Origin: Candidatus Omnitrophota bacterium | Lineage (GTDB): Bacteria; Omnitrophota; Gorgyraeia; Zapsychrales; Zapsychraceae | Direction of reading: 5' to 3' | NCBI GenBank assembly: GCA_028280285.1 | Contig: JANQMA010000030.1 | Coordinates: 1-40,976 of the forward strand | Length of the DNA: 40,976 nucleotides | Shown: positions 6,347 through 11,947 of the stretch, piece by piece | Position numbering within the stretch: position 1 is the stretch's first letter | How the letters are laid out: each line of letters begins with the position of its first letter | Notes under the pieces: model-generated | What the model was told of the DNA's origin: nothing | Database searches by the model: none | What the model saw: the letters and a program-made list of their open reading frames with translations, nothing else | Translations under genes and position numbers: made by a program

Positions 6347-7912
6347 TTGACTGAATTAAGATACACAGAAGTCGGCAAGGTAAAAAGTATCCGGGGATGT
6401 ATTGTCTTTGTCATCGGACTTAATAACTGTATTAATGGTCAGTTAGTTGAGTTTGGTTTCGGGACATTCGGGACTATTCTTGGGTTTACGGAAAAGGATG
6501 CGCAGGTGCTTATCGTTAAAGAAAGCACGCCTATTAAAACGGGTGATGAGGTGCGTGCATCGCTGGAACCGTTTAATGTTCCTGTCGGTGAGAATTTTAT
6601 TGGACGGATTGTTAATCCGCTGTGCGATCCGTTTGACGGGCTTGGCCCGATAAAGCCTGATGAGCATTATCCTATTTTTCCTTTAGCGCCGGGTATCCTG
6701 GATAGAAAAGTTTTGCATAAGACGCTTGAAACAGGGACAAAAGTTGTTGATGCGATGATTCCGGTCGGCATGGGACAGCGTGAACTTGTTTTGGGTAATA
6801 AGATGACGGGCAAGACCACGCTTATTACAGATTGTGTTATTAATCAAAAAGGCAAAGATGTCATTTGTATTTATTGTGCGATTGGAAAGGCGCGCTCTCA
6901 GTTGGCGCGTGTTGTACAGCTCTTTCAGGATCATGATGCGTTTGACCATACGATTATTGTAGCCGCTCCGTCTTCATCACCGCCAGGCCAGCAGTATTTA
7001 GCACCGTATGTTGCCTGTTCAATCGGTGAGTATTTTATGCACCGGGGTAAGGACGTGTTTATCGGCTTTGATGATTTCACCAAACATGCCTGGTGTTATC
7101 GGGAAATATCGCTTTTACTTGGTCGTCCACCGGGGCGCGACTCTTATCCGGGGGATATTTTTTATCTGCATTCAAAGATGATTGAGCGGGCATGCCATTA
7201 TGATGATGCTCATGGCGGAGGATCAATGACGTTTTTACCGCTGGTTGAAATTCTTGAGGGCGACTTAACAGCATTCGTCCCGTCAAACCTGGTTTCGATG
7301 ACCGATGGTCAGATTCTTCTTGATGCGGCGATGTTTGGGCAGGGACAAAAGCCGGCGCTAGATCTTGGTCTTTCTGTTTCGCGTGTTGGAACCAAGGTGC
7401 AATGGCCGATTATCAAGGACTTGGCCGCCCCAATGCGTTTGGAATATTTGCAGATTCGCGAGCTGCAAAAATCATCTAAGTTGCGCTCAGGTCCACAGTC
7501 CGAAGAACTTATGGAACGTTTAAAGAGTGGGGAGGTTTTAACAGCCCTTATGTGCCAGGGGAAAAATAAACCGGTGCCGCTGGAAGCCTTGGCGCTTATG
7601 CTTTATGCCTTCCGGGAAAAATATATTATCGATTTAAAACCGCAACAGTTAGAAAAATTTCAAGATGAGATTTTTGATTATGCTAAAGAAAAGAACCCTG
7701 AATTTTTAACGAAATTAAGGGAAGAAAAAAAGCTCAGTGAGGAAATTGAAAAGGTCATGCAGGACATTTTACAAACCTATGTGCGTGAACGGTGTCCGGC
7801 AGGCGCAACGGGAACTGAGGAGGAAGAAGAAGGCGACGATATCGTATCAAACATTGGCCGTGATGTTCTCGACGAGGCAGCTTCCAAAGGCCTTGAAAAA
7901 AGCAAAAGTTAA
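6347..7912 (+). CDS. atpA: F-type ATPase alpha-subunit homologue (non-catalytic nucleotide-binding subunit). TTG start.
   Basis: It aligns along its length to F1 alpha: 'GQRELVLGNKMTGKTT' (P-loop), 'LLGRPPGRDSYPGDIFYLHSKMIERA' (cf. '[26 protein letters not shown]'), 'PALDLGLSVSRVG' (arginine-finger region) and 'AFVPSNLVSMTDGQI'. An RBS 'aaggag' sits 8 nt upstream of TTG 6347. Confidence 0.85.
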   Translation: MTELRYTEVGKVKSIRGCIVFVIGLNNCINGQLVEFGFGTFGTILGFTEKDAQVLIVKESTPIKTGDEVRASLEPFNVPVGENFIGRIVNPLCDPFDGLGPIKPDEHYPIFPLAPGILDRKVLHKTLETGTKVVDAMIPVGMGQRELVLGNKMTGKTTLITDCVINQKGKDVICIYCAIGKARSQLARVVQLFQDHDAFDHTIIVAAPSSSPPGQQYLAPYVACSIGEYFMHRGKDVFIGFDDFTKHAWCYREISLLLGRPPGRDSYPGDIFYLHSKMIERACHYDDAHGGGSMTFLPLVEILEGDLTAFVPSNLVSMTDGQILLDAAMFGQGQKPALDLGLSVSRVGTKVQWPIIKDLAAPMRLEYLQIRELQKSSKLRSGPQSEELMERLKSGEVLTALMCQGKNKPVPLEALALMLYAFREKYIIDLKPQQLEKFQDEIFDYAKEKNPEFLTKLREEKKLSEEIEKVMQDILQTYVRERCPAGATGTEEEEEGDDIVSNIGRDVLDEAASKGLEKSKS

Positions 7913-7918
7913 TAATCA

Positions 7919-8191
7919 ATGGGACGCATTATTAAATTTAAATGTATTATTTTAAGTCCCCATTCATTGATCTATGAAAATGAAGTTGAGAGCGTTTTTT
8001 TGACAGGTGATCAGGGAGAGTACGAGCTTCTTGCCTATCATTATCCATTGGTTGGCGTTTTAAGAAGAGGTGATGTGATTATTGATTGGAATCATAAGGT
8101 GTCAATCAACAGTGGGGTGGTTAAGTTTTTTGCCAATGAATGCTTGATTATGATTGAGGAAGACGTCAGGAAAAAAGTAAAAATTAAGTAA
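7919..8191 (+). CDS. atpC: F1 epsilon-subunit-like protein with the N-terminal beta-sandwich only (90 aa). It lacks the C-terminal inhibitory helical hairpin.
   Basis: 'LTGDQGEYELLAYHYPLVGVLRRGDVII' aligns with epsilon '[28 protein letters not shown]'. The protein ends about 45 aa earlier than canonical epsilon. Confidence 0.6.
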   Translation: MGRIIKFKCIILSPHSLIYENEVESVFLTGDQGEYELLAYHYPLVGVLRRGDVIIDWNHKVSINSGVVKFFANECLIMIEEDVRKKVKIK

Positions 8192-8200
8192 GGAATAAAC

Positions 8201-9424: not shown

Positions 9425-9432
9425 GATTTTTT

Positions 9433-10284
9433 ATGGGAAAAGCAAACCGTAAAAAAATTGAATTGATTGAGACCGGTGAAATGGTGGGGCTTATTCAAAC
9501 CCTTAAGGATATTGCCGACAGTAAATATTATTCGATGCTCGGGGAAAAAGAGAAGTTAAGACGGTTTGGTGAGATGTTTGTTGAGTTTTTCCGTTTAATC
9601 AGTTTAACGGGATGCGAGCATCCGCTTATTAAAAATGACAATAAAAAGGTCGGGATTGTTGTTGCGACGGGAGAGGGAAGTTTTTTAGGAAAATTTAATG
9701 GCTCTATTTTAAGCCTTGCCGAGCGTCAACAGAAAGAATATGAAGAATATGAATACATTGCGGTCGGAGCGCGTGGCGCTGAACGTTTGGAACAATATAC
9801 GCCTGATTTAAAGGTTTTTTCCGGTTTTGAAGAAATCGGTATCTATGAGATGGCCATTCAGTTGAAAGATTATCTCATTGAAAAAATTATGGATGGTCAT
9901 TATGGCAAAATTATTGTTGTCTATTCCTGGCCGAAAACCCAGGACATTCAAAGACCACGGATTGTTAATTTATTGCCATGTATTGATTTGGCATCTAAGC
10001 AAGCGGAGTATGTCGAGGAGTTTGAAAAAGTCATTGAAGAGTCTGATTCGCGTGATACTGTCGGTATGTTGGCGCAGATTTGGGTTACATCCAGATTGTA
10101 TGAAATATTTTTAGATCTTCTTATTGCCGCGGCAGCGGCTCAGGCCTCATTTTTGGATGATAGTGTTGATAAGATGAAAAAGGAAGAAGTGAAAGCACGG
10201 TTTGCCTACCGTAAAGCCAAGAAGGGTGATATTGATAAAAGTTTGCGGGAAACATTTTCTGCACGATTGATTGCTAATGGATAA
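9433..10284 (+). CDS. atpG: F1 gamma-subunit-like protein (283 aa).
   Basis: Its length and its N- and C-terminal helices fit gamma. 'KKVGIVVATGEGSFLGKFNGSILS' aligns with gamma '[24 protein letters not shown]', and 'YIAVGARGAERL' with 'LAMIGSKGVSFF'. It is positioned between b-delta and beta. Confidence 0.6.
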   Translation: MGKANRKKIELIETGEMVGLIQTLKDIADSKYYSMLGEKEKLRRFGEMFVEFFRLISLTGCEHPLIKNDNKKVGIVVATGEGSFLGKFNGSILSLAERQQKEYEEYEYIAVGARGAERLEQYTPDLKVFSGFEEIGIYEMAIQLKDYLIEKIMDGHYGKIIVVYSWPKTQDIQRPRIVNLLPCIDLASKQAEYVEEFEKVIEESDSRDTVGMLAQIWVTSRLYEIFLDLLIAAAAAQASFLDDSVDKMKKEEVKARFAYRKAKKGDIDKSLRETFSARLIANG

Positions 10285-10309
10285 TTCTTAACGTTCACTG
10301 AAGGAGATA

Positions 10310-11947
10310 GTGTTGGATAGCGAAGAACAAGAAAATCAGCAGGAACCTCAAGAAAACGCTGAGGCCCCAGAACAAAAAGAGGCTGCAGAGCAACCGGCCG
10401 AAGAGCAACCAGAAGTTTCTAAACAACCGCAAGAGGCACAGCCAGCTTCAGAAACATCACAGGCCACTGAGACTTCTGTTGAATCTTATGAGTCTGCTTC
10501 GTCTGAGGTCGTCGAGCAAATTGAAGAAGGCATGGAACATCCCTTTGCCAATCGCGGTGACCGTGGGCGCGGGCGTGTGAGTGCTGTGCAAGGCCCGGTT
10601 GTTGATGTTTGGTTTGACCGTTCAGAAGATGTGCCTGCTTTGTATGATACGATTGAAGTGTATACTGTCGACGGGAAACGTGTCGTGCTTGAAACCTTTG
10701 AGCATTTGTCAGAAAATCTTGTGCGTACTGTAGCGATTATGGATACCCTTAATATTCAGCTAAATTCTGTTTGTTACAATACCTATGAGTCGATCACAAT
10801 CCCAATGGGGGATGCGAATTTTGGACGTGTTATGGATTCGGTTGGTCGTCCGCTTGATAATAATGGTCCGCTTAAGTGTCCAGCCCGCGTTCCTATTCGC
10901 TATCTCATGAAGCCGGTTCCGTTTAATTTAAAGAATAAAAAAGGTGAACGTCCGGAAATTCTTGAGACAGGGATTAAGTATTTTGATTTACTTTTTCCTC
11001 TTGTTAAAGGAAGTAAGACAGGGATTTTAGGAGGTGCTGGATGTGGGAAGACGGTTGTTATCCTTGAGCTTATTAATAATATCGTTAAGGCGCACGGGGG
11101 TGCATGTGTTTTCTCCGGTATTGGTGAGCGTATCCGTGAAGGAAATGAGCTTTATCATGAGCTTGACGAGGCCAATCTTTTACAGAACGTTATGCTTGCT
11201 TACGGGCAAATGGATCAGCCTCCAGGAGCGCGCGCGGAGATCGTTAATGTTGGATTATGTTTAGCCGAATACCTCCAGGCGAAAAATAAAGACGTACTTC
11301 TGTTTATGGACAATGTGTACCGCTATATTCAGGGAGGTCAAGAAATCTCAACACTGCTTGGGCGTGTACCGGCGGAAACTGGTTATCAACCGACATTGGC
11401 GTCTGAAATCAGTGGTGTTCAAGAACGTATCCGTGCGGTAGAAGGAAGTGGTTCGATTACAGCCTTTCAGGCCGTTTATGTTCCGGCCGACGACTTTACA
11501 GACCCTGCGGTTGTGGCGATCTTTGCTTATCTCGACGGGAGTGTTGTTCTTTCGCGTGACCTTGTCCAGCGCGGGATGTACCCGGCCATTGACCCTCTGG
11601 TTAGTACGTCGACAAACCTTGACCCGGATATTGTCGGGATGAATCATTATAAAGTCGCCCAAAATGTTTTGGAACATTTCAATAAACACAACGCGCTTAA
11701 GCGTATTGTTGCGGTTATCGGTGTTGATGAACTTTCTCCGGAAGACCGGGGCATTTTTACACGTGCTGAAAAGTTGTATAATTTTATGACGCAACCTTTT
11801 ACGGTTAGTGAGGTCTTTACTGGTAAAAAAGGAGAATACGTTTCCATCCCGGATACAGTTGAAGGCTGCGCAAAAATTATGGATGGCGTTTACGACGATT
11901 GGAAAAAAGAAGATTTTTATATGATCGGTAAAGCACCACGGATTTAG
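10310..11947 (+). CDS. atpD: F-type ATPase beta-subunit homologue (catalytic) with an ~85-aa acidic, low-complexity N-terminal extension. GTG start.
   Basis: '[44 protein letters not shown]' (cf. 'GGAGVGKTV..ELINN...GVGERTREGNDLYHE'). '[39 protein letters not shown]' matches the Walker B and DELSEED-proximal region. The N-terminus '[36 protein letters not shown]...' is absent from canonical beta. Confidence 0.9.

Follow-up and report, generated by a model that had tools for sequence, protein, structure and literature searches.

An F-type ATPase without a linked subunit a in a pseudopilus operon of Omnitrophota: a candidate motor for an envelope apparatus

A 41-kb stretch of a Candidatus Omnitrophota bacterium (contig JANQMA010000030.1, 40,976 nucleotides, hereafter called the window) contains seven tightly packed open reading frames (ORFs) on the + strand, filling positions 6347-11947, which encode an F1-like ATPase together with two c-type hairpins and a peripheral stalk and run directly into pseudopilus genes. 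We favour, with a probability of roughly 0.55, the reading that this is an accessory F-type rotary ATPase lacking subunit a, which would act as an ATP-hydrolysing motor for the envelope apparatus encoded with it in an operon of ~22 kb. Loci of this type have been known, though poorly characterised, since Seymour 2023 (PMC10066038), and the idea itself is not new. What appears to be new is that a c ring and a b-delta stator are kept although subunit a is missing; that two c paralogs in Omnitrophota stand against two alpha paralogs in other phyla of the Planctomycetes-Verrucomicrobia-Chlamydiae (PVC) group; that the N-domain of delta and the N-terminal helix of alpha are lost jointly; that a giant repeat protein (REP) and a 445-amino-acid (aa) protein (U445) form fixed flanks; and that the entire operon occurs in at least three PVC phyla (Omnitrophota, Lentisphaerae and Kiritimatiellia), Verrucomicrobiota being represented by named gamma homologs only.

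Subunits were called from hidden Markov model (HMM) scans with Pfam and NCBIfam, and the E. coli operon (locus L088) served as the alignment reference. The gene content proposed in an earlier note on this DNA was recovered at its coordinates, namely alpha, epsilon, two c hairpins, a b-delta fusion, gamma and beta (Table 1). The catalytic motifs of beta and the Arg-finger region of alpha, which the note had described as intact, are so in the alignment to E. coli: beta (47.5% identity) retains the P-loop GGAGCGKT, the catalytic GERIREGN and the Walker B motif LLFMDN, and alpha (36% identity) retains the P-loop GNKMTGKT and the Arg finger SVSRVG. Alpha lacks the ~20-residue N-terminal helix that binds delta in E. 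coli and has an acidic C-terminal tail. Epsilon matches the N-domain family only, and its alignment to E. coli epsilon agrees with the proposed loss of the inhibitory C-terminal helices. The acidic N-terminal extension ascribed to beta is present (85 aa), but it is specific to the window and its length varies among relatives.

The start codon of the second hairpin abuts the stop codon of c'. In a profile-profile comparison (hhalign), the second-hairpin family matched the c' family with 97.8% probability (E 9e-13, 71 columns), the Glu of the second transmembrane (TM) helix falling in the same column, and the second hairpin is therefore taken as a c' paralog. An AtpQ-, AtpR- or AtpI-like identity was rejected, because no such matches were obtained and hhalign gives a c paralog. 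Of the labels c' and c used in the earlier note, the two hairpins stand, but c' is the canonical-type c and is the one with Ile56, and the second hairpin is the one that keeps its Glu. The b-delta family HMM aligned with residues 97-174 of E. coli delta (E 1e-18) and with residues 32-155 of E. coli b (E 1e-6). From these ranges, the stalk has a TM helix, then a b-like coiled coil and, of delta, the C-terminal domain but not the N-domain. The best NCBIfam match of the fusion is the long b of N-ATPases (TIGR03321), over its full length and, at 59 bits, below the cutoff.

No subunit a was found. Pfam scans of all sizeable ORFs in the window gave 0 matches to PF00119 (ATP-synt_A), in line with the claim that subunit a is missing from the 41 kb, and beyond GspF, an STT3-like protein and an EamA transporter, the only polytopic stretch in the window is the N-terminus of a GGDEF-EAL protein. 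Just upstream, where a subunit a gene would have changed the picture, the longer contigs of relatives show REP and U445 instead. The wider search spanned up to 10 kb on each side of the matched gene in ~90 loci. E. coli AtpB retrieved nothing from 4443 ORFs of related loci (--max; best E = 2), and E. coli epsilon, beta, gamma, alpha, delta, b and c each retrieved their counterpart among the same ORFs. The a subunit of the comparator locus L093 also retrieved nothing from the ORFs of ~90 related loci (best E = 0.43). The three comparators, L091 (gene order a-c-b-delta-alpha-gamma-beta-epsilon), L092 (from Erysipelotrichaceae) and L093, all show a Pfam-called ATP-synt_A gene. Median intergenic gaps across related loci are 2-83 bp, so that no additional gene fits inside the operon. 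Two TM helices were considered as substitutes for subunit a and rejected: that of b-delta, on sequence, since the helix is not conserved, and that of U445, which has only T, H/N and W plus a boundary Arg-Ser and no intramembrane Arg comparable to a-Arg210.

The association of the ATPase with the pseudopilus operon and the repeat protein, first proposed from the window, turned out in a gene-neighbourhood survey to be conserved synteny and not coincidence. For this survey, 87 loci were fetched and their ORFs annotated with the window proteins; a scan of the genome contig collection with the gamma sequence gave one locus (L005), and an exact-match look-up of that sequence gave none. Synteny was read as far as each contig extends. 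In ~85 Omnitrophota loci, the order is giant repeat protein, U445, alpha, epsilon, c', c, b/delta, gamma and beta, followed by GspE (with MshEN and PilZ), GspF, a peptidase MA where present, GspG, two pilin-like proteins, GspK, PilMN, PilO and a TPR protein; the sole departures are two single-gene insertions and the lack of the peptidase gene in some loci. Synteny of the ATPase with pseudopilus genes was counted in 53 loci, and in the window only 2 bp separate the beta stop from the GspE start. Gamma has 279 detectable homologs, the named ones being from Omnitrophica/Omnitrophota metagenome-assembled genomes (MAGs), and the named gamma or U445 homologs include Ca. Zapsychrus exili and Omnitrophica WOR_2 GWC2_45_7. 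Mean pairwise identity is 77% for c', 72% for beta, 67% for alpha, 58% for gamma, 54% for epsilon, 45% for b/delta and 38% for the second hairpin.

The module extends beyond Omnitrophota. An exhaustive alpha search gave two near relatives, with 47% (L089) and 41% (L090) identity, and the remainder were at or below ~40%. Both loci lack subunit a. In L089, which is pseudopilus-linked and reordered, the order is epsilon, c, b/delta, alpha, gamma, beta, GspE, PilZ and GspF onward; in L090, it is alpha1, alpha2, epsilon, c, b/delta, gamma and beta, then pntAB. Gamma of the L090 type has 464 homologs, and those with names belong to MAGs of Lentisphaerae, Kiritimatiellia and Verrucomicrobiota. L095, a contig from Lentisphaerae, and L096 and L097, from a Kiritimatiellia contig, also carry the whole super-operon, in the order giant protein, U445 homolog, alpha1, alpha2, epsilon, c, b/delta, gamma, beta, GspE, GspF, pseudopilins, GspK and PilM onward. 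The giant protein of these super-operons has 3700 aa and a Laminin_G_3 domain, and the U445 homologs of the Lentisphaerae and Kiritimatiellia loci match with E values of 4e-22 and 2e-28. The two alpha paralogs and single c lie at 5719-8623 in L095, 5725-8638 in both L096 and L097, and 147-3084 in L090; in a pattern search, alpha2 of these loci lacked the SVSR[VI]G Arg-finger motif.

In a neighbour-joining tree of 89 alphas rooted with beta, a set without Mycoplasma and N-ATPase sequences, the alphas of the window family were monophyletic (99.5% bootstrap) and formed a clade with those of L089 and L090 (98.5% bootstrap). This clade, in which the homologous super-operons of Lentisphaerae and Kiritimatiellia are counted, branches close to the base of the alpha tree and excludes more than 60 canonical representatives, so that the placement of alpha, to which the earlier note had given weight, is that of a clade of its own. 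The alpha of L093 branches alone at the base of the tree, close to the clade without subunit a; its locus (7296-12686) reads a, c, a 242-aa b-like protein, alpha, gamma and beta, with no delta or epsilon gene.

A separate enzyme for energy conservation is consistent with what is reported for relatives. Ca. Zapsychrus exili, whose gamma is 61% identical to that of the window, is described as using a V-type ATP synthase (Williams 2021, PMC8542988), and Seymour 2023 distinguishes 'respiratory' from 'symbiotic' (sF-ATP) alpha clades in Omnitrophota. The question of a second ATPase raised in the earlier note is thus answered from relatives, which are reported with V-type or 'respiratory' F-type enzymes, and this argues that the window module is not the housekeeping enzyme. 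A 2026 preprint counted alpha and beta in 125/176 complete Omnitrophota genomes and gamma in only 30 under strict thresholds, and found V/A-type subunits in most Gorgyraeia, which fits a divergent accessory module; no atpB counts are given in it.

In the favoured reading, ATP hydrolysis by alpha3beta3 would turn gamma-epsilon, which would drive a ring made of both c-type hairpins, and this ring would rotate against the b-delta stator anchored in the membrane. Without subunit a, the torque or conformational cycle would not be used for ion transport across the membrane and could instead be passed to membrane partners from the same operon, the candidates being the TM helix of U445, the GspF platform and PilMNO. 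The output would be deployment, movement or secretion of a surface apparatus, and the bioenergetic ATP synthase of the cell would be another enzyme. Rotation relative to the membrane is argued from the retention and conservation of both the rotor (gamma, epsilon and c ring) and the stator (b/delta); a ring working against an ion channel of the usual kind is argued against by the fact that subunit a is absent throughout. We infer the hydrolytic direction, the rotation itself, the identity of the coupling partner and the loss of ion coupling from the sequences. A broader version, which we put forward more tentatively and as somewhat less probable than its negation, is a PVC-wide second motor in which an ATPase without subunit a is coupled to a platform resembling type II secretion systems (T2SS) and type IV pili (T4P) and to a bitopic periplasmic protein, deploying or moving a giant repeat adhesin.

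Several observations weigh against this reading, among them the conservation of the c-ring carboxylate in most relatives. The window itself is an exception: its c' has Ile56 (codon ATT; residues 55-56 at 8363-8368) at the position of Glu in relatives and of D61 in E. coli, and this codon is at least two nucleotide changes away from any Glu codon; the second hairpin of the window keeps its TM2 Glu (E61). Across the family, Glu was present in c' in 56/58 sequences, being lost only in the window (Ile) and L009 (Ser), and in the second hairpin in 57/64, seven relatives having lost it. Moreover, no protein of the operon is more conserved than c'. Such a pattern points to a continuing role of ion binding, and is to be expected if binding against an a-like partner is still important. 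In addition, inspection of the TM helices of b-delta and U445 revealed no partner with a conserved charge inside the membrane; an unlinked, trans-encoded subunit a, which would fall outside the searched flanks, is conceivable; and the pairing of a b-delta lacking the delta N-domain with an alpha lacking its N-terminal helix would make the hold of the stator on alpha problematic.

Because the c-hairpin Glu is mostly conserved, an alternative in which the enzyme is still ion-coupled, as an H+/Na+ pump or an ion-driven motor, stays alive, and we regard it as the strongest competitor, though unlikely. The stator channel would then be supplied in trans or be non-homologous, for example a subunit a encoded elsewhere, the I subunit of the V-type enzyme or the GspF/PulF-type platform, and the module would provide local energy for the pseudopilus in cells that ferment and have a weak ion-motive force. 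On the one hand, the 58 loci with both hairpins carry Glu in both (49) or in one (9) and never in neither (0), the full stator stalk is kept, and a hairpin pair with one carboxylate recalls the proteolipids of ATP-driven V-type pumps, which have a reduced number of sites. T2SS function requires an ion-motive force, and PulF has been modelled as a trimeric H+/Na+ channel (PMC10790770). The nearest relative with subunit a, L093, also combines a long b with an N-terminally truncated alpha. On the other hand, subunit a is missing within 10 kb in the ~90 loci, which come from four phyla, and the carboxylate of c' is lost in the window. In the Kiritimatiellia locus, the only c has Met in place of the carboxylate, and ion translocation by that ring is therefore excluded. 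The lack of double Glu losses was rejected as an argument: only ~0.24 would be expected by chance, so that observing none proves nothing. The source data of Seymour 2023 also include, as an anecdotal entry, the KEGG orthology list of a genome ('221') with K02111 and K02112 and without K02108.

It is considerably less probable that the F1-like head acts, in the manner of FliH-FliI-FliJ, as an ATPase for secretion or unfolding, with the c ring and b-delta as a mere membrane dock and export of the giant repeat protein as the function. The homology of FliH, FliI and FliJ with b/delta, alpha/beta and gamma, respectively, is established (bioRxiv 10.1101/2021.01.01.425057), the gene for the giant protein always lies two genes upstream, and no signal peptide is visible on REP, the N-terminus of which lies beyond the sequence reached. 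Against this, the module resembles true rotary enzymes in keeping an alpha/beta heterohexamer whose alpha is non-catalytic, together with gamma, the epsilon N-domain and the c ring; Pfam scans of the window found no export-gate genes; and the pseudopilus has its own ATPase, GspE. Least of all do we expect a housekeeping ATP synthase with a scrambled operon and a distant subunit a: alpha and beta do pass the NCBIfam equivalog cutoffs for atpA (TIGR00962, 498 vs 484) and atpD (TIGR01039, 530 vs 463), and PGAP calls the relatives 'F0F1 ATP synthase subunit', but gamma, epsilon, c and b score far under their equivalog cutoffs, alpha falls into a clade of its own, some loci have lost the carboxylate, the tie to the pseudopilus operon holds strictly across four phyla, and V-type or respiratory F-type enzymes are additionally described for relatives.

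The proteins surrounding the ATPase give some idea of the apparatus. REP consists of tandem 13-aa repeats, G[IV]NW[SDN][DN][IL]xx[LM][ST]xx, followed by a conserved C-terminal domain of ~320 aa, and the same repeats and C-terminal domain are found upstream in 42/42 loci that extend that far. The upstream repeat protein of the earlier note is thus present, but its gene runs past the 5' end of the window. REP relatives occur in L001 (1-5458) and L086 (1-10001), and in the contig of L001 the gene encodes 6697 aa. Pfam Lysostaphin_N matches the repeats with 72.7 bits, probably through repeat-to-repeat similarity only. U445 has a signal peptide, two copies of a unit made of a beta-sandwich and a three-helix bundle, and one C-terminal TM helix; the modules were delineated in an AlphaFold2 model (pLDDT 86), and a structural-neighbour search with U445 gave no informative match.

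GspE carries two domain families that bind cyclic di-GMP (c-di-GMP), MshEN and PilZ, and a PAS-GGDEF-EAL protein and a response-regulator receiver are encoded nearby (window 25357-25857 and 29139-31106). Together, these domains suggest, at the level of gene content, that the machine could be under c-di-GMP control. PilZ is a separate gene in L089 and absent from the other PVC loci. Directly after the operon, on the opposite strand, lies a gene for an STT3-type oligosaccharyltransferase of 861 aa (22002-24587, - strand), and an extra type IV pilin-like gene (28639-29043, + strand) follows a GH94 phosphorylase; glycosylation of a pilin or surface protein is possible. A family of secreted proteins of ~1000-1150 aa, with a signal peptide and then a ...P.PG.M...KGL motif, accounts for insertions in the operon in two loci (L085, 4984-8433; L075, 14845-17973), one between beta and gspE and the other between gspE and gspF. 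A partial ORF of this family lies in the window at 40157-40975, 18 kb downstream (E 2e-69), and the family may be a cargo or partner. A scan of 4500-22500 for promoters and terminators gave no informative signal. In window positions 1-12000, the coding strand has a strong positive GC skew, which amounts to 0.3-0.4 in the repeat gene and 0.17-0.29 in the ATPase genes, compared with ~0.1 elsewhere.

Table 1. Genes of the conserved operon in the window
Feature	Coordinates	Strand	Evidence or remark
REP (3' part of giant surface-type protein)	2..5008	+	ORF open to window 5' end
U445	5008..6342	+	between REP and alpha
F1 alpha-like subunit	6347..7912	+	PF00006 1e-67; TIGR00962 498 bits
epsilon, 90 aa	7919..8191	+	PF02823 (N-domain) only
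c', canonical-type c hairpin, 73 aa	8201..8422	+	PF00137
second c-type hairpin, 77 aa, two-TM	8423..8656	+	hhalign to c'; 0 Pfam matches
b-delta fusion (peripheral stalk), 248 aa	8678..9424	+	b and delta models both match
gamma (central shaft)	9433..10284	+	PF00231 8e-22
F1 beta-like catalytic subunit	10310..11947	+	TIGR01039 530 bits
GspE/PilB-type assembly ATPase with MshEN and C-terminal PilZ	11950..14151	+	HMM scans
GspF/PilC platform protein	14170..15378	+	PF00482 4e-62
Peptidase_MA_2-like protein, one TM helix	15332..16174	+	absent here in a subset of related loci
GspG major pseudopilin and two minor pilin-like proteins	16227-16655, 16711-17130, 17350-17952	+	PF08334, N_methyl matches
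GspK-like, PilM-PilN fusion, PilO-like, TPR protein	17974..22018	+	end of conserved operon

Rotary ATPases are textbook ion-coupled machines, and to our knowledge the Mycoplasma systems of types 2 and 3, in which the whole Fo sector is lost, are the only established repurposed F1 motors. Unlike these, the present module retains both rotor ring and stator stalk, only the ion channel being lost. If the wider proposal holds, it would be a third use of F1 rotation, after ion translocation and the Mycoplasma X0 systems, and the first case in which a c ring and stator are kept and turn against a partner other than subunit a, possibly a GspF ion channel. It would show how torque from F1 can be diverted within a diderm envelope, give T2SS/T4P-like systems a second energy input and define a conserved gene set for testing host attachment or attack by Omnitrophota. 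The module is present in nanobacteria suspected of predation or parasitism and in three other PVC phyla. The pipeline label 'F0F1 ATP synthase' on these genes leads to an overestimate of chemiosmotic capacity in such genomes.

These points extend a published description. According to Seymour 2023 (PMC10066038), a 'non-respiratory' F-type ATPase lies beside type-4a pilus (T4aP) genes in many Omnitrophota, V. archaeovorus LiM among them, and the two are within 10 kb of each other in 57/66 contigs; the alpha of the 'symbiotic' clade grouped with Mycoplasma types 2 and 3, attachment to or motility on host cells was proposed as the role, and giant ORFs were noted in the same genomes. The window belongs to this 'symbiotic' group of F-type ATPase/T4aP loci, being of Omnitrophota origin, with an alpha in a separate clade and T4aP-type genes within 10 kb. 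That study rested on alpha and beta trees and co-location only, and we saw nothing in its text and supplements on subunit a, the c subunits, the b-delta fusion or stalk, the U445 and repeat-protein flanks or homologous operons outside Omnitrophota. For the operons of Lentisphaerae, Kiritimatiellia and Verrucomicrobiota, we found no description in the literature.

Among known systems, the canonical F1Fo enzyme shares homologous alpha, beta, gamma, epsilon N-domain, c hairpin and b stalk with the window module, and the catalytic residues are the same in kind. The window module differs in lacking subunit a, the delta N-domain, the epsilon C-domain and the alpha N-terminal helix, and in having two c paralogs, another gene order and its embedding in a pseudopilus operon. 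Canonical rings have a carboxylate in every c; here, Ile56 of c' stands beside Glu61 of the second hairpin. The PRK13343 model was missed (524 vs cutoff 554). Type III secretion (FliI/SctN) models gave 160-190 bits against cutoffs of ~600, and a distinct alpha/beta pair is present.

N-ATPases resemble the module in being a second F-type operon in the genome, without a separate delta gene and with a long b carrying a C-terminal extension (PMC4154653). They differ in being ion pumps with subunit a, AtpQ and AtpR and the order atpDCQRBEFAG; none of these three proteins was matched in HMM scans of the window, and the N-ATPase models were missed (TIGR03324, 466/750.5; TIGR03305, 452/752; TIGR03321, 59/224.7). 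The locus L093 has a 242-aa long b homologous to b-delta (E 1.5e-9), a truncated alpha N-terminus and a c similar to c', and it differs in the presence of subunit a, the lack of an epsilon gene and the lack of linkage to secretion genes.

The Mycoplasma systems offer a close parallel, an F1-like head tied to surface proteins and doing its work on extracellular ones. For their type 2 F1-like ATPase, the proposed role is to power gliding by a machinery with giant surface proteins, type 3 is required for extracellular antibody cleavage by MIB-MIP, and the cluster order is a 12-TM protein, a small protein, gamma, epsilon, a signal-peptide and TM protein, alpha and beta, with no b or c (PMC12994834). 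Profile scores place the window alpha and beta, on sequence similarity, nearer to canonical F1 than to these types: the models MMOB1660 (371/600), MSC_0619 (283/520), MMOB1670 (411/850) and MSC_0618 (395/570) were missed, and in a PDB comparison the window beta scored 400-452 bits with canonical betas and 334 bits with the M. mobile G1 beta. Instead of c', c and b-delta, the Mycoplasma types have the 12-TM protein, which has no counterpart in the window operon, and the small cytoplasmic protein. They share with the window module an alpha without the N-terminal helix, the lack of subunit a, the position as an extra module beside a housekeeping enzyme and, just upstream of alpha, a protein with a signal peptide and C-terminal TM segment, of which U445 has one and not two.

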